Shown: positions 4,787-44,298 of the stretch, piece after piece
How the letters are laid out: each line of letters opens with the position of its first letter
Numbering within the stretch: position 1 is the stretch's first letter
Assembly (NCBI GenBank): GCA_977018835.1
Contig: OZ361261.1
Coordinates: 2,356,001-2,420,000 of the forward strand
DNA from: Minutocellus sp. GHC0000111
Taxonomy: Eukaryota
Length of the DNA stretch: 64,000 nucleotides
Direction of reading: 5' to 3'
Made by a program: the position numbers and the translations under genes
Notes under the pieces: model-generated
Told to the model about the DNA's origin: nothing
What the model saw: only the letters and a program-made list of their open reading frames with translations
Databases searched by the model: none

Positions 4787-6354
4787 TCAATCGCAAATTT
4801 GCATCAAGTGCCTCATTGAGGTGATCCTCTCTGACCGACGGAGGCCCTCAGTCTCCAAGAGATTTAGCTCTTTGATTACAGCATCCATGGTCTGGTGTCT
4901 GCATCTCGGATCGACCTCCAACATCTGTTCGATAGTTCGCACAATATTCTCAGGCCTTCCGTAAAAGCTCCTTCGGCCCGGGGCACTAAGTTCGGCCACT
5001 AGGCGCTCTGTATCAAGCTGTACAGTCTTCCGCTTAACAATATCTTCGATGTGTTCAAAAGGACGTTGCCCCGTAATCAATTCATAAAAGGTCACCCCCA
5101 AGGAGAACACATCCGACGTCTCTGAAGCACACAGAGGATCGTGCCAAACTTCTGGCGCGGTGTATCGAGGATCCAATCTATCCTTGGCATCCTTGAGGAT
5201 GGTGGCCTTGTTGCCAGATCGGATTCGGGCGAGGTCAAAATTCACCAGCTTCACTTGTACTTCATCCTCTGCTTCAGTATCTTCATCGTCCCGGTCATCC
5301 GATTTGCACAGAGGTGTCGAAACACCGGGAGTAGAACCAAATCCATCACCGGGAGGCACCACGACGATGGAATGCGGCTTTAAGTCGCGATGAATAATGT
5401 TAGCCTTGTGGCAGTGCTTGAGGCCCTTGGCCACGTGCTCAATAATGAGCCTCTTGTCTTGCCAAGTGAGCTTGGACGAATCCGAGTATCCTCCAAGGTT
5501 CGCCCTTTCTCAAAGTATTCGTGAGGGAGCACAAAGTCGGCCGGATTGGCATCAGAGGCAAAGAAATCGCCGGTTCGGATTATGCATGGATGCGCACTTA
5601 TCAATCTTAATGCCTCCTGGTCATGGAAGATGGCCTGCAGTTGATGTTCCCGCTCATGGGGAGCTGCGTACAGGTCGTGGTGATAGACCTTCAAAATTGT
5701 GCGGGGCCGGGTAGTGATGTATTTGTGGCTTGCAAGAAAGACACTGTGCGAGTCGTACTGACTAATCTTTTCTTCAATGTTGTAGAGTCCAATCTGCTTC
5801 AGCGTCCGCGACGGAGCTGGATTGCTTCCAACGATGGCATCGGAAATATCATCATGCAGCGATGTGATGTTGCGGCATCCATGAGGGAGCTTCGTTGGAT
5901 CTGTCAATCTGCGCATAGCATAGTCAGTGTTGATTTTGAGGACTCGGTCGGCCTGGTCGTCCATAATTCTAATGCCAGCACGAGGGTCCGTGATGAGGAT
6001 TACGGTATCCACATAGACTCGGCTCAGAGCAGCATGCTTTCTCAGACGTGAGGCAAGTATCTTGCTCTTCTTATTGGCCAATGGGATGGGCGAGGGAAAT
6101 GCGTGCCCCGAGTCGAATCGCCACCGATGCTTGTCGCCTCTAATGATACCCGTGAAGTGCTTTACCTCCACATGATAAACGGCATTTCTCCCGAGGACAC
6201 AAATGTCGTACTCATACGGCAGATCTCCAGGTCGAGCACATGCTTCAAAATTGTGAATAATGCGATAGTCTGGTGGTAGATTCTCGGAGAGATACTTGAT
6301 GGCCGCAGCTTCGCTCTCGGTTTCGGGCTTTCCGATGCAGTGAATTTGAGCCAT
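4787..6354 (-). CDS. NERD nuclease domain + Ser/Thr kinase-like (probable pseudokinase) fusion, bacterial-type; one frameshift near 5490
   Basis: NERD motifs SEAAAIKYL..LPPDYRIIHN, EYDICVL..AVYHVEVKHFTGIIRG and SPIPLANKK. Kinase motifs ILKVY, HRDLKPHSI, VKLVNFDLAR, YTAPEV and SDVFSLGVTFYELITGQRPF. ORFs 5380-6408 and 4787-5434 join at TLED/DSSKLTWQDK. Confidence 0.8.
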
Positions 6355-6786
6355 GTTGCTTGCTAAAATGACGAGGGCACCTCTCGTATCTATCTTGTTA
6401 TGTTCCAATTGGATGGAGTTATTATGTGCTGGTGTTTTCTTGTTTACAATGCCGAAACGTGCTCTCTATGAGTGTGGTTATCGGCAATAGGCGGAAACAA
6501 ACCCTCGTTGGCAGCGGCTTGCGCTTGTAATAAACCGCGGTTGTGCCGTTTTTGCTGGCGGCGCTCGTCATGTCATGTAATGCTTTGTCAGGCAACGATT
6601 TTTTGGATGCCAGCTGCCCATTATTGCGCCGTTGGTGTCACTTTGTGACAAATTTTAGTTTTTGAGGGTTGCACAAGCTACGTACCTAGGTACGTTGTGT
6701 GTACCTAGGTACCTAGGTACGACGTAGAAAAGAAAGGGCAGACGTTGCATGTTGACAGCCACAAATTATCCAATCCAAAAGGCAGG

Positions 6787-29002: not shown

Positions 29003-30313
29003 ATGGGCAAGAAGAGCAAGCGCCGCGGAGGCACCGGCGGCGGCGTCGGAAAGAAGGGTACCACCGCCAGCGGCGGAGCATCCAGGGGTGGTGCTGCTAC
29101 CGCTCGCTCGTCGGGCTCGGTTCGTCATCAGCCAGCAGGAGGAGCACGAGGCAACAACTACGAGCTCGTACGACACGCCCATCGATGCCCTCGCTCTGCT
29201 GGAAAGCGTTAAGGAGCCGCTGCCAAGTCTCAAGGGCATCATCTCGACGAACGACGACCCCGACGCATGTGCAATCTGCTCAGGTCCCCTCACATTGGGC
29301 CGACGATATGTTGTGGCACAATGTTGTGGGAAACGCGGCTGCGACGCGTGCTTCGACGAAGGCAAGGTTGGATACGCCAGTGACCTTCTTGGGCTCGATC
29401 GCTGCACCTTCTGCAACTCATTGAAGTGGAAGGAGGCCGCTATTCTCCGGAGGGAGGCCATGGCGGGAAATGCGTGGGCGCAGCATTTCTACGGAACTTC
29501 CCTCGACGAGCTTGAGAAAATGAGGAAGCTGCTTCCTGGTACCAGAGGGCGGCCTCGCACGGGCATCCCGAAGCCTTCCTGGCCCTTGCGGGAATGTACG
29601 GGGATGGGTTAGGATGTCCTCTCGACCGCAAGCTTGCTCGGATGTATGCGGAGAAGGCCCACTCTCTTCATCCTCAACTCGGCGTGCGGTGCAACCGAAT
29701 TCTACTCAGTGTTGCCATGAACCTATCCGACGACGGATTAGTAAAAGAGGCCGACGCAATCCTTCGTGATTTGGTGCATCAAGACGAAGATGCTCTCGAC
29801 GGGGACCTATGTGAAAGAACCGCCGCGTCTCTCTATACTATGGGACTATACCGCCTTTCGGGGAAAATGCGCCTCAAAGCTTTCTGTCTTGGCCAGCTCG
29901 GGTCCGCTTTCAGTGCAGCCGAATGTTACTTCGTTATCAGAAACTATCCTCTCTGTAAGTTGTGGCTGTCGGTTGCATGTCAGACAAAAGGTTGGTTCTT
30001 CAAAGAAGAATTTCAACCTCACGGAAAAAGCTTTTGGGTGTCTCATGAGAGTCGGCGAGATGAGTTCCGAATCGAATTCCGCGAGGTCCGCGACTCGTGC
30101 GGTGGGTGTGGCGCCGCACTTGAGGGCGATATGCGCAAGTACTGCCGAGGCTGCAAGGCATACTGTTACTGTAGCAGAGAATGCCAAAAGCTGCATTGGA
30201 ATCGCAAGAAGGATAGTCATAGGGACGAATGCAACAAAGCCAAGGAACATTGGGAGAAGGCAGTGGAGGCTATCCGCAGTGGCAAGGTCATCTTGCCGAA
30301 GAAGAATGAGTGA
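29003..30313 (+). CDS. RING-like + Sel1 repeat + MYND zinc finger protein; 2 frameshifts
   Basis: MGKKSKRR start, CAIC...CCGKRGCDAC...CTFC, AMAGNAWAQ, and MYND CGGCG...CRGCKAYCYCSRECQKLHW...HRDEC. Confidence 0.75.
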
Positions 30314-31677: not shown

Positions 31678-31833
31678 AATCAGATGATACGAAGAATGAG
31701 AAGTCGTAGCTAGCTTCAGGTAAGGTGCGGTTTGGGGGCAGACGCTCTGGGAATCCGAGGTTTTCAACCGAGAGCTAATCAAGACTTGTTCGGCCAGTGA
31801 ATTGCAGAGAATAGGGTGTAACGTTTTGCTATT

Positions 31834-32294
31834 TGTGGGTACCGCACGGTGGGGATGAGCTGGCGACGGTGGTTAGCAGCAGGCACTAAAACTGCATTCC
31901 TGTAGTGCCCAGTTTTTCTGCTGACCACCACCTTCGCCTCCTCTCGTCTCAACTGACCAAGCCACAACCATCTGCGATTGCTGCCGTTGCAATTGCTAAG
32001 TCAGCTTACAGTACCGGCTCCCAGAGCCTGTCTCTCTCTCTCAGTAGTTAGTTAGTTTTAAATTCCCTCAAACCGCCTCCTCACCCTCTAAGAAGTTTCA
32101 TTTACCGCCGACCTCACCCTCTAAGAAGTTTCATTTACCGCCAATGCCAGCTCCAGTTCACGTAGTTAAACTGCATTTCATGTTCTACTAAGTTGCATAG
32201 AGTTGGGAGAATCAGCGGAGGGAGGTGCTGTGTTCGATGTATCATCGCGACGCGACGTTGCCGTGCATAAACCTTAGGCTCGCCTTATGACGGC
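31834..32294 (+). repeat. Left terminal repeat A1 of the YR retrotransposon (contains block B at 32110-32247)
   Basis: Matches 36961-37426 except two substitutions (32012 T vs 37139 C; 32110 G vs 37237 A) and one extra CGACG unit in the right copy. Confidence 0.95.
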
Positions 32295-32348
32295 ACAGCT
32301 TGTCTCCGTACCCCCGACGACGCCGGCAACGACCTCTCTTGCTTCTCA

Positions 32349-32798
32349 ATGGCCGACGAGTCCAAAAAGATAATGAAGACTCAAAATCCTTTCGTCTACC
32401 CCAGCCACATCAAGCTCGTCCAATCGGCCAACGCTCCCACCCCTTCCTCGGATTCCGACTCCGACAAATCAGAGCCAAGAACCAGTCCGAAAAAGAAGCA
32501 AAAGACGGGCGGCGCCAGCGGCAGAGCCCACCAGCACGAACACTTCGTCACGTTCGACATCAACCCCGGCAACTTTGCAAAACGGTATGGCAAGAAATCC
32601 GAGCCCTATGAGGACAGACCTGAAATTAATGGCTGTAAATTCTGCCCTCCATTCATCCTGATAGGTGTCTGCGGCGCCGGATCCTCGTGTAAGCTCAAGA
32701 AGTCGCATGTCAAGAGGCCTCTTAAGGCATCGGAGAGAGGACCCGTCGAGCAGCACGTCGAGAAATGCGATCGGAAGTACGAGGAGGCGGAGGAGTGA
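32349..32798 (+). CDS. Gag-like ORF1 remnant with CCCH-type zinc finger
   Basis: CPPFILIGVCGAGSSCKLKKSH, located between the left repeat and the RT. It is short, so possibly 5'-deleted. Confidence 0.55.
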   Translation: MADESKKIMKTQNPFVYPSHIKLVQSANAPTPSSDSDSDKSEPRTSPKKKQKTGGASGRAHQHEHFVTFDINPGNFAKRYGKKSEPYEDRPEINGCKFCPPFILIGVCGAGSSCKLKKSHVKRPLKASERGPVEQHVEKCDRKYEEAEE

Positions 32799-33529
32799 CG
32801 GATCGGGTGGGCACGGAGGCGTGGCCCACCCTCGGAGGATGCTGGAGAAACATCTCGGCCAGCCGGCCGAGCTCGTCCCTCCAAGCGCCGTCGAGTGCAG
32901 CCAGACACGTCGGCGTCGATCCGCCCCGGTGGCTCCAGCCGCCCAAGGTTATCCGGCACCCCAAAATCCGGCGTGTGCGGTCGCAACGACATCAGCAACC
33001 AATCCAGGCTCTCCGGTGCCCCTAACACCGGAGCAGAAGGCCGAGGCGTTAGCAGTGACCTTCGGTCGGGTCCTGGTCCCCCTGACACCAGCGGTGATGC
33101 CTGCGCCGACAACAGCATCTCAGGCTCTGGCTCCAGCACCACTAACGCTGGCGGTGCGGAAGCCACCGACAACCTCTTCGACCGGCTAGGCCAGCGAGAG
33201 AAGGATCTCCTAGGTAAGCAGCCCCAACCCGAAGCACAGTCTCCCCCTGGTTCCCCTACGCACAGTGAGGAAGTAGAACCGACACGCCAAAATGGTAAGT
33301 GAGACCAACAGGTGAAGAAACACCTACAACAAACGGGGCAGCCCAGCGCCCACAATGGGCCCACCACGGTCGGACAGACCCGCATGCTCGTGAACGTGCA
33401 GCATGTACATATCTCACCTTTTTCTCGCCTTATGCAATTCCACGTGGGAACTAGAGCCCATCTTCGATGTTTCAACCTTGGTGCAGTGCGTCCGATGAGC
33501 AGTCGAGTCCCCGTCGGCCACACCGAAGC

Positions 33530-35640
33530 CCACGGAGTTCAGATTTGAGCTCTTGACGGAGGCCGCCGCTCACAATTGGTCGGTCCTCAAGAAATGCGAT
33601 CGTTCTCTGAGCAGGGCACTCGAGGCGCAGGGCGGGTCGCCACTCCAACCGGGATCGGAGTTCAGAGACCTCTGAGTCTTCTGGAGCCGATTCATGGCCG
33701 GCACCCGCTGTGGCCCCGCTTCCGCTCCATTCTCGACAGTGGATCCGACTGGGCCCCCTCGATCCGGTGGGCGACGAAAGCAGACTGGACAGCGTGACAA
33801 AGAACATCGGCCGAGGCAACCACAAATCGGCCAGGGATAGGCCGGAGGTACTCAAGGACCAAGTTCTCGACGACGTGACCCGCGGTTTCGCCCTCCCTCT
33901 GCCAGCAAAGGTCGCGCCCCTCATTCCTGGAGCGGGGGTGGCTCCGATGGGTTTTTGGCAGCACAGAACTCGATCAGCGAGGCTGGCGAGATCATGCCCA
34001 AGGACCGCCTGACTCACGACCAATCCTTCAAGATCGGTGCCGCACGGTCCGTCAACAACAGAGTGCGCATGGAGGACCACCAGCCAGTGGTGTTCGGCCA
34101 TGCCCTCCGGCGAGTGATCCACTACATCGTAGACGCCCGTCACAAGCATCCCCGTGCTCCCATCCTCCTGCAGAAGGTCGACTTCAAGGCTGCGTGTCGC
34201 CGGGCCCACTTGGCTCCCAGCACGGCCGTCAAAACGATCACCACCCTGGATGGCATTGCCCTCATGTCCCTCCGGCTGACTTTCGGCGGCCGCCCTTGCC
34301 CGAGCGAATGGTGCAACATGTGTCCGAATCGGCGGCCGACCTGGCCAGGGCCCTCCTGCAATGCTCGGACTGGGACCCGTCAGAGCTCCACAGCCCCCAG
34401 CAGAAGCACTTGGGTCGCCCCAAGGTGGAGGGCGACGATGTGCCGTTCGCGCCGGCCCTGGACATGATCGTAACCCTTCCCGACAACAAGGATGGCATCG
34501 TCGAGCCGCACATCGATGACCTCATCGCCGCAGCCCCTGACCTGGGCGACAACAAGGATCGGATGTCCGCTGCCACCCTCCTCGCCATCCACGCGCTTGG
34601 CCGACCGGTGTCCGACAGCGAGCCACTGCCCAGAGATGACCTTGCCTCCATCAAGAAGCTGCTCGCCGAGGGGACGCCTTCCGAAGCACTGTGTCTCTTG
34701 GGGTGGGATGCTGACACCCGGCGGCTCCTACTGAGGCTCCCTTGGAGCAAGCACCTGGCCTGGCGCGATGACATCCTTCGGCTCCTCAGAGCCCGCGGCG
34801 CCACCAGATCAGAGCTGGACACCTTGGTCGGAAGGCTAAACCACGTCGGATGCATCATTCCAGCCGCACGACACTTCCTCAGCCGCCTTCGGGATCGGCT
34901 CTGGAAGGCCCGCCGCCACGGCCGCCAACGGTTCGACTCTGAGGATGCAGAAGACCTCAACCTGTGGCTCCGCTTCCTCCGAAGGGCCGCCGATGGCATG
35001 AGCATGAACCTCCTCACGTGCCGTTGCCCCACCCACGAGCACACAAGTGACGCCTGCGAGCACGGCATCGGCGGATGGTCCTCATCCGGCAGAGCGTGGA
35101 GATTTGCCCTCCCCGAGGAGCCATGGGGCCGGTTCACACTCAATTGCCTGGAATTCCTCGCCGCCGTCATCGGTCCATGGATCGACCACATCGAGGGCAA
35201 CCTACCAACCCTCTCCTGCGCACTGTCGGGGACCGACAGCACCACGGCCGAGGGATGGCTCAGGAAGTCGAACTTCGTGTCTCACGGCGCGAAGGATGCC
35301 GACGTAGCGGTCAAGCTGGCCACGGCGCGGAAACTAGCCGACATGCTCATCGAGACCAACACCATGCTGCACTCACAGTGGTTCCAGGGGAAGCGCAATC
35401 CGGAGGCCGATTCTCTTTCTCGTGATGCCGATCTCTCTGATGCTGACCTCACGAAGTTGCTTCTGTCATCTCCCGAATGTCAGCTTCCCTCAAATTTCAG
35501 GATTGCACCACTACCCAACGAGATTGCTTCCTGGATTGTCTCGCAGGCACGGACGCTGCCCGTCAGGAAGCAGTTACAACGGCCACTGCCGAGAAGCACG
35601 CTCTCGCGTGGAGCCGCTGGACTGAGTTCCTGCAGCTCAT
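33530..35640 (+). pseudogene. Reverse transcriptase + RNase H of the YR retrotransposon, frameshifted, Tyr codons lost
   Basis: GSEFR, HPLW, RGNHKSA, KDRLTHDQSF, KVDFKAACRR, LRLTFGGRPCP, HIDD (YxDD position), LGW..DTRRL, SDACEHGIGG, LEFLA, TDSTTAEGW and NPEADSLSR. Confidence 0.9.
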
Positions 35641-36765
35641 CGGGACACCGGGGACGACGTCTTCCTCGACAAGGCATCACCCCGAGACCGAACAGTCATT
35701 CTCGGCGCCTTTGCCCACGCCGTCCGACAGGCCAGCTTTTCGGGGCCAAAGTTTTCGCGACTGGCTGCGTCGACAGTCCGAGATGCCGTCTCACATGCAT
35801 GCTCGTCCTTCCGGCACAACCAGCGCAGGGACCCAGGGAAAGACGACATCGGCCAGCCTTCATTCCTTCTACAGCGGCAGTTCCGAGGACACAGCCAGTC
35901 CGACCCGGCCGAGCGGCCGGAGAGGGCGATCACCTGCCGGCTCCTCCGAGAGATCGCCTCCGTCAGGGAAACGGAAGAGGACCGTGCAGTGCAGTCGGGC
36001 AACTAGCCGCCGTCGGCGCCTTCTTCTTCGCGATGAGGTCTTGCGAACGAACACTCCAGAGTCAGCGGTGAGCGCAGGACCAAGCTGCTCCGCCTCCGCA
36101 ACATCCAGTTCTACCGCGGCCAACGGCGCATGTGTCACAACGACCGGTCCCTCCTTTCAGCAGACTCTGTCTCCGTCACCTTTGAGTTCCAGAAGAACGA
36201 CGAGCGTGACGTCACGATTACGCAACACTGCACCCACGACGCCACCCTCTGCCCAGTTCGAGCTTGGGCTGCCCTGGTGAAACGAGTCCTAGGGCACCCT
36301 AGTACCAACAGCGACACGCCGGTTAATGCCTTCGTGGTCAACGGCGTATTAAAATACATTCCTGCCACCCGAACAGTTGACAAGATCCGAGCGTCGGCCA
36401 CAGTGATTGGAGAGGACGTCCTGGGCTGCCATCCCTCTGAATTCGGATCACACTCCATTCGCAGCGGAGCAGCAATGGCAATGTATCAAAATGATGTTCC
36501 CACGTACACAATCATGCTGGTAGGGCGGTGGTCCAGTGACGCCTTCCTCAAGTGCATCCGTCGCCAGGTCCAAGAATTTACATCCGGAGTCTCCACACGC
36601 ATGATCCAACGAGGTTCCTTCTTCAACGTGCCCCACGCACACTCGACGAGCCATCGCGAAGACCCAAGGACCCCAAATTGCCGCCAATCCTTCGCCGGCA
36701 TCAACAGTATTGGCCGAAATGCCGGCTTCGGGACTCCAATGCCCCCCTTCGCCCTGTTCACCTAA
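35477..36765 (+). pseudogene. Tyrosine recombinase of the retrotransposon; catalytic Tyr replaced by Cys
   Basis: AFFFAMRSCE (Arg), FEFQKND, LCPVRAW, GSHSIRSGAA (HxxR), GRWSSDAFLKCIR (TGC at 36553-36555). Overlaps the RNase H in another frame and has several frameshifts. Confidence 0.9.
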
Positions 36766-36821: not shown

Positions 36822-37437
36822 GACCTCACCCTCTAAGAAGTTTCATTTACCGCCAATGCCAGCTCCAGTTCACGTAGTTAAACTGCATTTCATGTTCTAC
36901 TATGTTGCATAGAGTTGGGAGAATCAGCGGAGGGAGGTGCTGTGTTCGATGTATCATCGTTGTGGGTACCGCACGGTGGGGATGAGCTGGCGACGGTGGT
37001 TAGCAGCAGGCACTAAAACTGCATTCCTGTAGTGCCCAGTTTTTCTGCTGACCACCACCTTCGCCTCCTCTCGTCTCAACTGACCAAGCCACAACCATCT
37101 GCGATTGCTGCCGTTGCAATTGCTAAGTCAGCTTACAGCACCGGCTCCCAGAGCCTGTCTCTCTCTCTCAGTAGTTAGTTAGTTTTAAATTCCCTCAAAC
37201 CGCCTCCTCACCCTCTAAGAAGTTTCATTTACCGCCAACCTCACCCTCTAAGAAGTTTCATTTACCGCCAATGCCAGCTCCAGTTCACGTAGTTAAACTG
37301 CATTTCATGTTCTACTAAGTTGCATAGAGTTGGGAGAATCAGCGGAGGGAGGTGCTGTGTTCGATGTATCATCGCGACGCGACGCGACGTTGCCGTGCAT
37401 AAACCTTAGGCTCGCCTTATGACGGCCATGTATCATC
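36822..37437 (+). repeat. Right terminal complex: block B (36822-36959), repeat A2 (36961-37426), short B-end copy ATGTATCATC (37428-37437)
   Basis: Direct sequence comparison with 31834-32294. Confidence 0.93.

Positions 37438-38462: not shown

Positions 38463-38492
<30 letters not shown>
38463..38492. repeat. (AT)n microsatellite flanking the MITE
   Basis: About 15 AT units directly left of the TIR. A short ATATATAT follows the right TIR. Confidence 0.95.
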
Positions 38493-38495
<3 letters not shown>

Positions 38496-39254
38496 AGTCC
38501 CAAAATGCGCACTGTCCCAGTTCGCGAACTGGGATCCCAGTTTGCGAACTAGGATTTATTTATCCCAGTTTGGAAACTGGGATCATAGGCACAATCTCAG
38601 TTTGCAAACTGGGATCAATCGAGAAATAATGAATATTTAGCATGGATGATATCGCCTTTGCTTCTCCTCGCTTCATTTTTTCATAGTGAAGCAACACAGC
38701 CCAAACCTGGTCCAGACGTCCAGACGACATTAGTGCCGGAGCTGATACTCAATAAATTGGCATTAGCTGATACTAAATACATATAGTGAATAAATAATAA
38801 TATCTAGCTAGCTGCTTCTGGCAAATATAAGTCATGAACTGTACATGCACCTGTGCTATGCCGGCATCATGTTGCTACTGTACCAGTACATGTAGCTTGC
38901 AAATTCAAGATATGATGCACAGTGCAACTTGTATTGTAGATAGATCTACCAGTACATGTACAAAATAGTCGTTGTGCATGAGCCAACACCGGCGCGGCAG
39001 TTACCATTCTGGCACTTGCCGAGAACACCAGTTTCCAAACTGGTATTTATTATTGTTCCAGTTCGCGAACTCGTCTGGTTCCCATATTCGGATTAGCTTA
39101 TTTATCTCAGTTTACATTCTGGTAGTATCAGTGCGCAAACTGGGATCCTAGTTTGGGAACTGGGGCCCAGTGCGCAAACTGGGATAAATGAATCTCAGTT
39201 CGCAAACTGGGATCCCAGTTCGCGAACTGGGACAGTGCGCATTTTGGGACTAAC
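38493..39254. mobile_element. MITE / non-autonomous DNA transposon, 762 bp
   Basis: Perfect ~58-bp TIR GTTAGTCCCAAAATGCGCACTGTCCCAGTTCGCGAACTGGGATCCCAGTTTGCGAACT, extending imperfectly to ~90 bp. AT-rich non-coding interior, with TA repeats on both sides. Confidence 0.9.
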
Positions 39255-39261
39255 ATATATA

Positions 39262-41408
39262 TCAATGGCGGCCCTGAGTAACCGTCTTCTTTCTTCGGTG
39301 GGTGCGCGGCTTTTTCATCCCCTTGGTCACTTTGACAGAATACCGAATGCATGTGCTGGCGCTATCTGTCGACTTTACCGCATTGGCCTCGGGCACTTGC
39401 TGATCACCTTCCGCGTTACAATTGCAGGCTGGGCTGCTGACACTGTTGCTGGCGGAAAGCTCGTGGTTCTCGCTTGAAATGTGTTCCTTTGACTCATTGT
39501 TCTGGTCTTGGCATTTCTCCTCGGCCAGTGTGTTGAACATTGCTTTTGTTTGCGCAGCTTTGTCCTTGCTCTTCTGTAAGTTGGAGAGGTAGTGAGATGC
39601 AAGGACCCCCATGCCGCTGAACAGGCCATCAGCAGCGGGCGCTGCCTTGGTATCATTTGGGGGCAGCAGCAATGCCTTGTCGATGTCGGACTTTTGGCCA
39701 GCATCGGGCGGTTCACGAGCACTCGCTTCTTCGGCACTTGGCTTCGTCACGTCGGCATCGACATGCTTGGTGTCGTCATTACGTTGATCAACGCTACTGG
39801 ATTCCGGTCCAGTAGAAGGGAAGATGTTGGGTAAACGAATAAGACTTGTGCCTTCCAAACGAGGTAGCACACCAAACAGAGCCGAAGGGTTTGCACTTCC
39901 TTCGGCATGTTTCGTGGCAACATCCTTGAAATATTCTTCTTCGATCCCGGGCTGGTTGGAATTGAAGGGAACAACGCGAGACTTTATAACTTGAGACTTC
40001 GACTGACCATTGGGTCTACCCATTGGCTGATGAATCTTTTTGGACATTGTAGGTGGGGCTTTGGTCTTGGAAATATCTTTGAGATTTCCAACAGCTTTAC
40101 ATGTAGTGCTTGGCTTCGCAACTGATTTGATTCGAGGAATGCTACAAAGACTCTCAGCGCATGCGTCTTGAGCAATCGGCGGCGACACCCTTTGCTCTTC
40201 AGCTGGTTCCTTCACATCGATTCCTTCATCTTTGGGCTTGACTGTATCTTCGATGTTCTTGGAAGATGGAAATGTACTACCACTGACATCAACTTCGCTG
40301 GGAGGGGGCGATGCTTGCGTAGGATTGGTCATAGAGCGGCGCAATCTTGAGCTGGCCTTCTTGGAAGTATCATCAGTCAGCAGCGAAGCTTCTTCCTTTT
40401 TTTGTGACGGCGTTTCAGTACTTACGCCTTTGTAAATTATTTCAATGGTAGGATGCTTGATAGAACTGTTTTCGCTCTCCGAAACAGGATTAGGGAAGTC
40501 GTCAGCAGAAGGATGTGCGAGTATGTCACCAGGTCGAAGTTGTTTGCACGCCTCCATTGCAGAGGTGGGCACCTGTTTCACGAGGACGGCACCATCGGTA
40601 TCGGTCTTGATGGCAAGTCCAAGAGGACCACGCTGATTGACGGTAACAGGGATAATGACATCCTGGACGATATCACCGCCTTGTCGGATGGCAACGAAGC
40701 GAATCGGTCGGGTGTTGGATGCACATACTTCTTTGAATTGCTCCGTTGTGAAGGGGATATGATTCATGAAGCGATCAGACGATGCCTCGGCCTTGTCTTT
40801 GCCCTCCTTCTTCGTGGATGAGGACGAATCCTTTCTCATATTCCCCCAGATAATGTTTCGAAGTTTGCTTTTGTTGGGAGTACCCGCAGAAGCTTGGTTC
40901 GGAGGAACGCTGGTAGGACCGGTGACGACCGAAAGGTCGTCATCATCCCCAAACGCATCGTCGTTGTTGGCGCAGTTATGGACGTCGGACCATTCCTCAT
41001 CCTCGCCGACGCAGATGAGTGTGACAGCGGAAGCATGTCGGTACAGGCACTGTAGCCAGTATACGCGCTATAATCAGTGCAGGCGCTGTATCCAGTACAG
41101 GCGCTGTATTCGGTCCAAGCAGTGAAAATTGTGCTCTCGTCATCCCAGCACTTGCAAGAGTCGCCACTAGAGGAGCCACCCAACCAACCGAAGAAGAAGT
41201 CGTAGAAGGAATTCGAATGCAGCATCGCATCACCACTATCAATAATGGGATCGACAACTCTGTCAACATGGCAGAGAAACTTGTCGATCCCGTGATCGAG
41301 AGTGCTGTTCATGGTGTCATCAACATCATCACATACTACGGTCGATGAACCATCTATTTCATCATCGACGAGAGATGGTCTATGAGTGGGTAGCACAGTT
41401 GTCTCCAT
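39262..41408 (-). CDS. Hypothetical protein with PDZ-like segment; frameshift near 41025
   Basis: ORFs 40836-41408 and 39262-40839 can be joined through ...EDEEWSDVHNC...NIIWGNMRKD. PDZ-like RGPLGLAIKTD...LRPGDIL. Confidence 0.55.
41041..41115 (-). repeat. Four 18-bp coding tandem repeats (T-x-Y-S-A-C/Y)
   Basis: TEYSAC TGYSAC TDYSAY TGYSAC in ORF 40836-41408. Confidence 0.85.
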
Positions 41409-41979: not shown

Positions 41980-44298
41980 ATGGGGAAGAAGTCGAAGGCC
42001 AAGCGTCGCACCGGCGGCGGCGGTAAGAAGAAGGCCACCGTCGCTTCCAATACTGCTGTTTCTACCCGTCCGAAGGCACAGTCGGTGCTGACCAGCGCAA
42101 TTGAGGGGAAGCCAAGAGCCGATGTGACTTCCAGCACAAGCACCACCCTTGCACTGCCCTCGTCCTCGCCCAGCGTCCTTCGGGGCATCATCTCCACCGA
42201 CGACGATCCAGGTAAATGCGCCCTCTGCCAAAAATCTATCCTACCAGAAGAATTTGCCAAGTATGTGTTCTCCCCGTGCTGTGGAAAGCATTGTTGCAAA
42301 GACTGTTCCGAAAGTGGGCGTTGCACAACAATGATTTCAAAATTTGCTTGGTGCCAAACGGTGCATCCTCTGCAATGTTAGGAGTGCAAAGCGGCACACA
42401 GCTGAAAAGAACGAGGCTCATTTGGGGAAAGCGTGGGCCCAATTTCAATACGGCCAAACTCTCGCAAAGAGGGTTGCCACTCGCTGGTTCAAGAAAGCTG
42501 CGAATCAGGGTCATCCTAATGCATGCCTCGAACTTGCTTTCACCTTCCGCCATGAAGATAAATGGGTTTGTCATCGGGATCTTGAACTCGCCAAATCGTA
42601 TGCAGAGAAAGCAAAATCTCTCTACTCGGGGTTTCGTCTACGTGCAAATCGTGCTCTATTCAGCATTGCTCAAGAATATGCACAGGAACAGGCAACTGAA
42701 AACGCCATTGTCATCCTAACCGATATCGCGAACGAGACGGATACCAGTGCTCTTGACAGCTCTTTGTGCGAAAAAGCTGCCGCGTGCCTCTATGGCCTAA
42801 GACAATACCAGCTCGCTGCAAAATTGTACACCAATGCATTTTTCCGTGGTGTGGTCAGATCGGCCCTTGGTGTATCACTTTGTCACGCCTACTCCAAGAA
42901 TCACGCTCTCAGCAAGCTATGGTTTTCTATTGCCTCTCAAATGAAAAATCAGTATGTTGCTGTTGATGGTTCCACCAAAAAGGAGTTATCTTGGTCGGAC
43001 GTCAAGTCATGGCAGGATTATATCCAATCCAATCTCCGCAAGAACCGAGACTCTTGCGGTGGTTGCGGTGCCGCTCTTCAGGGCGATACGCGTAAGTACT
43101 GCCGAGGCTGTAAGGCATACTGCTACTGTAGCAAGGACTNNNNNNNNNNNNNNNNNNNNNNNNNNNNNNNNNNNNNNNNNNNNNNNNNNNNNNNNNNNNN
43201 NNNNNNNNNNNNNNNNNNNNNNNNNNNNNNNNNNNNNNNNNNNNNNNNNNNNNNNNNNNNNNNNNNNNNNNNNNNNNNNNNNNNNNNNNNNNNNNNNNNN
43301 NNNNNNNNNNNNNNNNNNNNNNNNNNNNNNNNNNNNNNNAAGTGGGCGTTGCACAACAATGATTTCAAAATTTGCTTGGTGCCAAACGGTGCATCCTCTG
43401 CAATGTTAGGAGTGCAAAGCGGCACACAGCTGAAAAGAACGAGGCTCATTTGGGGAAAGCGTGGGCCCAATTTCAATACGGCCAAACTCTCGCAAAGAGG
43501 GTTGCCACTCGCTGGTTCAAGAAAGCTGCGAATCAGGGTCATCCTAATGCATGCCTCGAACTTGCTTTCACCTTCCGCCATGAAGATAAATGGGTTTGTC
43601 ATCGGGATCTTGAACTCGCCAAATCGTATGCAGAGAAAGCAAAATCTCTCTACTCGGGGTTTCGTCTACGTGCAAATCGTGCTCTATTCAGCATTGCTCA
43701 AGAATATGCACAGGAACAGGCAACTGAAAACGCCATTGTCATCCTAACCGATATCGCGAACGAGACGGATACCAGTGCTCTTGACAGCTCTTTGTGCGAA
43801 AAAGCTGCCGCGTGCCTCTATGGCCTAAGACAATACCAGCTCGCTGCAAAATTGTACACCAATGCATTTTTCCGTGGTGTGGTCAGATCGGCCCTTGGTG
43901 TATCACTTTGTCACGCCTACTCCAAGAATCACGCTCTCAGCAAGCTATGGTTTTCTATTGCCTCTCAAATGAAAAATCAGTATGTTGCTGTTGATGGTTC
44001 CACCAAAAAGGAGTTATCTTGGTCGGACGTCAAGTCATGGCAGGATTATATCCAATCCAATCTCCGCAAGAACCGAGACTCTTGCGGTGGTTGCGGTGCC
44101 GCTCTTCAGGGCGATACGCGTAAGTACTGCCGAGGCTGTAAGGCATACTGCTACTGTAGCAAGGACTGCCAAAAGATGCACTGGAATCGCAAGAAGGATA
44201 GTCACAGAGATGAATGCAAGGAAGCCAAGGAACATTGGGAGAAGGCAGTGGAGGCTATTCAAAGTGGCAAGGTCATCTTGTCGAAGGAAAAGGGGTAA
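41980..44298 (+). CDS. RING-like + Sel1 + MYND protein, paralog of 29003-30313; spans an assembly gap with a false duplication
   Basis: MGKKSKAKRR, CALC...CCGKHCCKDC...CILC, WFKKAANQGHPNA and MYND CGGCG..CRGCKAYCYCSKDCQKMHW. Frameshift near 42345. Confidence 0.75.
43140..43339. other. Scaffold gap (200 N) flanked by an apparently identical 828-bp overlap (42312-43139 = 43340-44167)
   Basis: Run of N, with the same ORFs repeated at an offset of 1028. Confidence 0.95.

Follow-up and report, generated by a model that had tools for sequence, protein, structure and literature searches.

In Neurospora and other ascomycetes, repeat-induced point mutation (RIP) converts C:G to T:A, mainly CpA to TpA; it requires pairing of homologous sequences, and its changes are generally coordinated by strand. 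A signature of the opposite polarity was recently described in a preprint on Bigelowiella natans (Mettrop et al., bioRxiv 10.64898/2026.01.13.699255), the main text of which reports that 231 of 302 de novo mutations fell in two viral regions and were nearly all A>G/T>C at TpA. The targets there were integrated DNA of a nucleocytoplasmic large DNA virus (NCLDV) and of a virophage, with both strands affected, host genes spared and the hypermutated NCLDV region single-copy; reverse transcriptase (RT) and DDE domains were enriched among TpA-depleted coding sequences, and an ADAT2-like deaminase was proposed. Here we analyze a 64,000-nucleotide stretch (hereafter, the window, whose numbering we use) of the diatom Minutocellus sp. 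GHC0000111, contig OZ361261.1, which carries a Ngaro-like tyrosine-recombinase (YR) retrotransposon with a closely similar signature.

The diatom element resembles the B. natans case in its A>G/T>C changes at TpA on both strands, in mobile DNA only within the 64 kb, with host genes spared, but it differs in host, in target (a multi-copy retrotransposon) and in being mutated near saturation. Compared with the main text of the preprint, it adds a 3′-pyrimidine preference, spared terminal repeats and 2–5 nt duplications; whereas the B. natans work shows de novo mutation directly, the diatom case offers only indirect signs of it, in star-like copies and one TA/CA difference between paired repeats. 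The first-pass annotation of this DNA knew of no described mechanism, a statement superseded by the same signature and adenine-deaminase hypothesis in Mettrop et al. What is new here, relative to that one preprint, is the family-level quantification, the TAY motif (Y, pyrimidine), the positional profile and the duplication signature. The word “diatom” does not occur in the preprint's main text, and our literature searches found no diatom report of TpA hypermutation, although their sensitivity was limited, as most also missed the preprint. We favor, with a probability of roughly 60%, a reading in which most inner TpA sites have become CpA or TpG, with both strands affected, probably once a copy has inserted and probably through a host TAY adenine deaminase of the TadA/ADAT2 type.

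The depletion itself is clear. The first-pass annotation had counted about 16 TpA by hand in 33541–36240 and noted that ApT was common; a dinucleotide count gives exactly 16 TpA and 100 ApT (TpA observed/expected (o/e) 0.17, CpG o/e 0.94). The trough spans approximately 33400 to 36000, inside the retrotransposon. GC-rich host coding sequences are also TpA-poor, as had been cautioned, but they remain above the element: the lowest 1-kb window outside it reaches an o/e of 0.31 within the 64 kb, and the 38 windows with GC of at least 0.58 outside it have a minimum of 0.35 and a mean of 0.59. RTAY (R, purine), although better represented in the host DNA of the window than any other TA class, is absent from 33853–36290, where 20.9 occurrences are expected from composition. 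The 625-codon frame at 34194–36068 indeed contains no Tyr, whereas all 13 of the long host open reading frames (ORFs) checked contain 3–45 Tyr each. This frame is nonetheless composite: it follows the real RT frame only between two small duplications, at 34319 and 35645, and is off-frame before the first and after the second. Within the 64-kb window, hypermutation is limited to the element and host genes are spared. The earlier claim that terminal repeats, host genes and ORF1 all keep their TpA holds for the first two (terminal repeats, o/e 0.86–0.89, although the cold YTAR class accounts for 11 of the left repeat's 24 TpA) but not for ORF1, which is partly affected (o/e 0.54; TA-type variants at 32371, 32535-6, 32951 and 33084).

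Comparison with other copies of the family shows that this depletion reflects a directional substitution process. Our sibling set comprises 40 predicted proteins of other copies on 28 contigs (told apart by length), which we assume to derive from this assembly or a conspecific one. Before counting, we removed one protein that matches the window exactly (P0263) and two near-duplicates (P0250 and P0271), together with one mixed-frame site and four sites interpreted as CpG changes private to the window; relatives on short contigs served as outgroups or were unused. Among 1289 codon columns with at least three siblings, 179 are variable, and the frequent variants (Tyr/His/Cys, Ile/Thr/Met, Val/Ala, Leu/Pro, and Thr/Ala after T) are those that TA-to-CA and TA-to-TG changes should produce. 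At 22 Tyr-type codons across the 40 proteins we counted CA 123 times, TG 103 times, TA 57 times and CG not once, although approximately 222 CG would be expected under independent transitions; approximately 80% of Tyr-codon TpA sites have changed across copies. Where the window kept TpA, siblings changed in 92 of 520 visible chances, compared with 143 of 12,619 for other A-to-G changes, a background inflated by CA/TG swaps. Counted by site, 28 of 45 TpA and 52 of 1042 other adenines changed (P=6e-23). The 1088 columns free of TA sites give rates of 0.0055 for AA, 0.0034 for CA, 0.0008 for GA and 0.0006 for transversions, and the family is young, with background change of approximately 0.1–0.5% per site. 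In the same columns, CpG changes at 0.0039 and other G>A at 0.0015–0.0018. Across 33301–36765, CpG transitions exceed other G>A approximately 2–4 times (0.0039 versus 0.0009–0.0018), a pattern that CG methylation within the element body could explain.

The changes are two-stranded and independent from copy to copy. CA and TG occur together in each well-covered copy, with no runs of one strand, and strand clustering is absent, with adjacent changes on the same strand in 218 of 414 pairs (null 0.516, P=0.33). Copies agree no more than shuffled ones (14 well-covered copies, 91 pairs; s.d. 0.088 versus null 0.093). Like RIP, the process acts on genomic DNA, where transitions at a particular dinucleotide affect both strands and inactivate transposons; unlike RIP, it lacks strand clustering, spares the most repeated parts and has the opposite polarity, as the first-pass annotation had proposed, since TpA is lost rather than gained and TG>TA occurs in 0 of 2772 chances after removal of TA-derived sites. 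A 5′ T/U preference for A>G is shared with AID/Pol η somatic hypermutation (WA/TW; W, A or T) and with ADAR editing, both of which have far weaker dinucleotide exclusivity. ADAR acts on RNA, on one strand, and favors a 3′ G. Editing of transcripts by an ADAR-type enzyme followed by reverse transcription would account for the 5′ T preference and for the alleles carried by contigs from RNA runs, but a sense template would give only A>G on the plus strand, which is contradicted by the mixture of CA and TG in well-covered copies, and a 3′ G is cold in the element. We therefore consider this explanation extremely improbable.

The sequence context is more specific than TpA alone. A>G at TpA occurs at a rate of 0.39 before C and 0.42 before T but only 0.08 before A and 0.10 before G, and CTAG changed in 0 of 53 cases. 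The same 3′-pyrimidine bias appears at non-TA adenines (24/394 versus 3/466 sites, P=4e-6), although some of the CA cases may be misread swaps. This shared bias suggests that TpA and non-TA changes come from one agent with a leaky 5′ requirement. The motif is T-A-pyrimidine, leaking to A/C-A-pyrimidine. Because TAA and TAG are cold contexts, removal of stop codons, previously suggested to make the ORFs look long, can be only a minor effect. Along the element, RTAY is 93–100% mutated at 13 of 13 such sites in 34195–36133, 46–88% mutated at 5 sites in 36295–36553 and 75% mutated at 33595; the effect weakens toward the element's ends.

Among the casualties are conserved tyrosines of both enzymes. 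The three motifs singled out as having lost Tyr, AACRR and HIDD in the RT and FLKCIR in the recombinase (Table 1), mostly carry Y (or F at YxDD) in relatives and a mixture of H, C and, except at AACRR, Y in siblings. The recombinase residue is putatively catalytic, by analogy with Cre, and a G>A difference at 36554 is present in 4 of 4 runs. Mutation polarity follows from the intact Tyr in distant relatives and in the close relative P0121, which is 94% identical and retains its tyrosines. Of the further Tyr sites proposed at the same time, KHLAW (siblings H14 C1), LLTCR (C8 H8), MLHSQW (C8 H6) and RGHSQSDP (H12 C3 Y1) stood up. LGCHP did not and was rejected, as its C is present in the intact relatives P0121–P0123 and the site is absent from the 179 variable columns.

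Independent sequencing data carry the same alleles. Among the 40 differences listed (of 128) for four public runs whose library type is unrecorded, 26 are TA versus CA/TG or CA/TG swaps, and in four Illumina RNA runs the proportion among those listed is 21 of 32, including a synonymous CTA to CTG at 34730. The presence of these alleles in Illumina RNA contigs indicates that they are real and not long-read errors. The RNA contigs show no TA-restoring difference at Tyr sites 34195, 34509, 34851 and 35370, but contigs drop rare variants, and an intact master copy may exist. The pattern could in principle owe something to faulty assembly, GC-rich codon use, GC-biased gene conversion or misread CpG decay, given that GC-rich host genes fall to a TpA o/e of 0.31–0.35 and that CpG, with its somewhat raised transitions (0.0039), can also give CA/TG swaps. 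Such an artefactual or neutral origin is nevertheless hardly credible: it is contradicted by the alleles in all eight runs, there is no Arg (CG) allele at the 22 Tyr codons, outgroups have Tyr, and other A:T to G:C changes are approximately 100-fold rarer. Taken with the sibling data, the TpA-specific, two-stranded hypermutation postulated in the first-pass annotation is well supported: siblings are not fixed for His or Cys, the TA excess is clear, the alleles recur in independent runs and no well-covered copy is changed on one strand only, four points on which that annotation had staked its claim.

A second signature consists of small tandem duplications. Each of the nine extra stretches listed for the window relative to other copies is a tandem duplication (2, 2, 2, 2, 2, 5, 3, 4 and 2 nt); the chance of adjacency for each is at most 0.11, and there are 42 further indels beyond those listed. 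Over 15,289 codons, siblings have 30 insertions of a single residue in frame, 27 of them copies of a neighbor; 20 deletions are apparent, but 16 of these trace to the duplication at 36006 in the window itself, and 4 remain. Length arithmetic on seven long contig pieces of run X16, which assumes that X16 is without the window's duplications, gives 18 letters of its own inserted and none deleted. An assembly fault across the whole genome is unlikely, given that host ORFs of up to 1247 codons are intact. At 35574, 35809, 35866, 36619 and 36703, an identical 3-nt duplication occurs in two or three copies whose TA outcomes mostly differ, which points to hotspots or to events older than the TpA changes. 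The duplications may have a cause separate from the TpA process: an insertion-biased process that would add 2–5 nt tandem duplications and frameshift genes. Its likely source is either slippage or the filling-in of staggered nicks, in the same chromatin.

Several observations weigh against the adenine-deaminase reading. The siblings are gene-model proteins, so that synonymous changes are unseen and several proteins may share one copy. ATAG, changed in 17 of 71 cases, is an exception to the context rule, and duplications are not enriched near TA sites (8 of 30 within 6 nt versus 7.4 expected). A repeat in the window resembling a miniature inverted-repeat transposable element (MITE) has a TpA o/e of 0.96 and no signature; no second transposon class within the 64 kb is affected. 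Comparable depletion of the RT region is found in 0 of 86 distant loci (o/e 0.36–0.78). Contigs from the RNA runs cover the element, which fits strict silencing poorly, although the libraries may contain DNA. The last two points concern chemistry and timing: because TpA is palindromic, A>G after T is the same event as T>C before A, and thymine chemistry fits equally well; and copy independence equally fits mutation during each copy's own retrotransposition.

The first of these two points leaves room for a post-insertion host process without an adenine deaminase, either oxidative modification of thymine at R-T-A, of TET/JBP type, or repair of marked DNA by an error-prone polymerase of the Y family (Pol η/ι-like). 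Pol η/ι-like polymerases have a WA/TW motif, and the second-best context in the element is indeed AA/TT (0.0055); gap-filling repair could also yield the duplications. However, the preference for TA over AA is approximately 70-fold per strand (0.39–0.42 versus 0.0055), which far exceeds the bias known for Pol η, and A:T transversions are not raised (0.0006, the same as G:C). As for thymine oxidation, the literature retrieved for diatoms and 5-hydroxymethyluracil is, judged by titles, all dinoflagellate work. We regard this family of explanations as unlikely, though worth keeping in view.

The second point corresponds to a model in which the changes arise during retrotransposition, through an A-mutagenic RT or editing of double-stranded cDNA, so that copies are born mutated. 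The star-like independence of copies is what descent from a single master would produce, both strand types without doubly changed CG could result from two rounds of synthesis, and some duplications are common to several copies. Yet the terminal repeats share the cycle and keep their TpA, RTAY mutation drops toward the ends and the paired repeats differ as TA versus CA at one site. The same signature also arises de novo in non-retrotransposon DNA of B. natans, as described in the main text of the preprint (bioRxiv 10.64898/2026.01.13.699255). Taken together, these observations make an origin during retrotransposition quite improbable.

On the adenine-deaminase reading, the element body would be marked as foreign or silent, the A in TAY would be deaminated on either strand, and replication would fix the deaminated A as G; a changed site, being no longer TpA, would not change a second time. 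A TadA/ADAT2-like enzyme fits because such enzymes act on A after U in tRNA. An enzyme of this kind is also proposed by Mettrop et al. The first-pass annotation had called the process repeat-targeted. That label is doubtful: although the family is multi-copy, its terminal repeats and the MITE-like repeat keep TpA, and the hypermutated NCLDV region described for B. natans is single-copy, which implies that repetition is not required. More tentatively, and on balance doubtfully, the two cases could reflect a DNA-level defence common to diatoms and chlorarachniophytes across the SAR group (stramenopiles, alveolates and Rhizaria): a chromatin-guided TAY adenine deaminase, paired in diatoms with staggered-break microduplication and leaving terminal repeats alone, at the expense of catalytic tyrosines and intact frames in the transposon bodies. 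If a host enzyme is the cause, it would be a natural eukaryotic DNA adenine editor, and the process a second kind of mutational genome defence, of polarity opposite to RIP, in two SAR lineages. The element family makes the question testable, as it provides many young copies, a defined motif for enzyme screening and a positional profile to set against methylation and chromatin maps. It also calls for caution, because the TpA process would distort the GC content of diatom genomes as well as their annotation and the dating of their transposons.

The element is Ngaro-like by the features given in PMC4157794. Elements of Ngaro/PAT type have an RT/RNase H, an overlapping YR and split direct repeats B1-A2-B2 downstream of the YR (PMC4157794), and the window element has all of these, with the YR after the RT/RNase H on the same strand (Table 1). 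It departs from the type in two respects: the left end of the window copy is a 3′-type A-B-Z module, as at its right end, instead of the usual 5′ end, and there is no Pfam match at curated cut-offs for its RT or YR, intact relatives included. A PDB sequence search likewise gave 0 matches, and predicted folds of intact relatives were used instead: that of P0005 matches retroviral and Ty3 RTs (best E 1.8e-10), and that of P0121 matches Cre and XerH (Cre E 2.2e-5). For the recombinase there is also a weak PF00589 match (E 0.062). For a methyltransferase domain, which a Ngaro element should lack, there was no Pfam match, although Pfam missed the RT too, and the P0005 model has low confidence at 770–807 and no further domain-sized region. 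The paired repeats differ by 32012 T versus 37139 C, the TA/CA difference noted in the first pass, by 32110 G versus 37237 A (CG versus CA), and by a 5-nt indel. Other copies have loose ends at the B/Z junction (32248–32249). They diverge from the left end at approximately 32060 and 32297; with the A-B-Z structure of that end, this divergence suggests that the paired repeats may stem from local rearrangement, and they may give no reliable dating.

Table 1. Features of the Ngaro-like element and tyrosine sites changed in the window copy
Feature	Positions	Strand	Remarks
TpA-depleted core	33541..36240		16 TpA, o/e 0.17
Left repeat module A + B + short Z	31833..32294	+	Near-identical to 36960-37426; TpA o/e 0.89
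ORF1 region	32295..33300	+	Gag-like role assumed from position; partly affected
RT / RNase H frame	33409..35770	+	2-nt duplications at 33670, 33754, 33952, 34319, 35645 break frame
Tyrosine recombinase frame	35477..36765	+	Overlaps RT/RNase H end; duplications 35645, 35991, 36006 (in-frame), 36044
B1 split direct repeat	36822..36959	+	Downstream of the recombinase
A2 split direct repeat	36960..37236	+	One TA-to-CA difference, 37139
B2 repeat (to 37374) + Z segment	37237..37426	+	Other copies enter varied flanks at B/Z junction
RT “AYRR” Tyr to Cys (TGT)	34195..34197	+	Y in 83/95 aligned relatives; siblings C11 H2
RT YxDD Tyr to His (CAC)	34509..34511	+	Relatives Y 78 + F 17 of 95; siblings H12 C2 Y1
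Recombinase putative catalytic Tyr to Cys (TGC)	36553..36555	+	Y in 35/35 aligned relatives; siblings H6 Y5 C1

The distant loci were drawn from metagenome and genome contigs, where only relatives 33–45% identical were found; 80 of 281 plus 6 were kept, giving the 86 loci. They mostly keep Tyr at conserved RT sites. As evidence on depletion they are weak, because most are short contigs that may be collapsed consensus sequences hiding per-copy changes. Some intact relatives have low synonymous TpA (L002 at 1501–2500, L069 at 1–2000, and the RT frames of L043, L049, L052, L071 and L076): a T-ending codon before A is used at 0.05–0.28 of its use elsewhere, and 500-bp windows reach an o/e of 0.08–0.16. 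These lineages possibly evolved under the same pressure, a weak indication given that coding DNA avoids TA generally. Relatives on long contigs filed in bacterial metagenome-assembled genomes (L081, L082 and L086) are probably misbinned eukaryotic DNA; L086 is degenerate, with six stops and without TpA loss. Among viral contigs, 40 pattern matches included none related to the element. The RT search gave Thalassiosira profunda as its sole named-organism match.

Elsewhere in the window, the gene at 2948–4711 matches a violaxanthin de-epoxidase cluster commonest in Bacillariophyta; together with the T. profunda match, it points to a diatom host. Sel1 + zf-MYND paralogues at 29516–30313 and 43363–44298 (Pfam was run on the former only) show no directional TA loss, with 13 TA kept and 6 TG/CA changes each way. 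The MITE-like element, at 38485–39262, carries inverted ends of 97 nt, contains a short palindromic motif that is repeated internally, is AT-rich and adjoins a (TA)n run. An 828-bp, 100% identical duplication (42312–43139 and 43340–44167) flanks an N gap and is probably an assembly artefact. Finally, two adjoining ORFs on the minus strand at 4787–6465 resemble, in this order, a NERD-type nuclease domain and Ser/Thr kinase domains, an arrangement bacterial in style.

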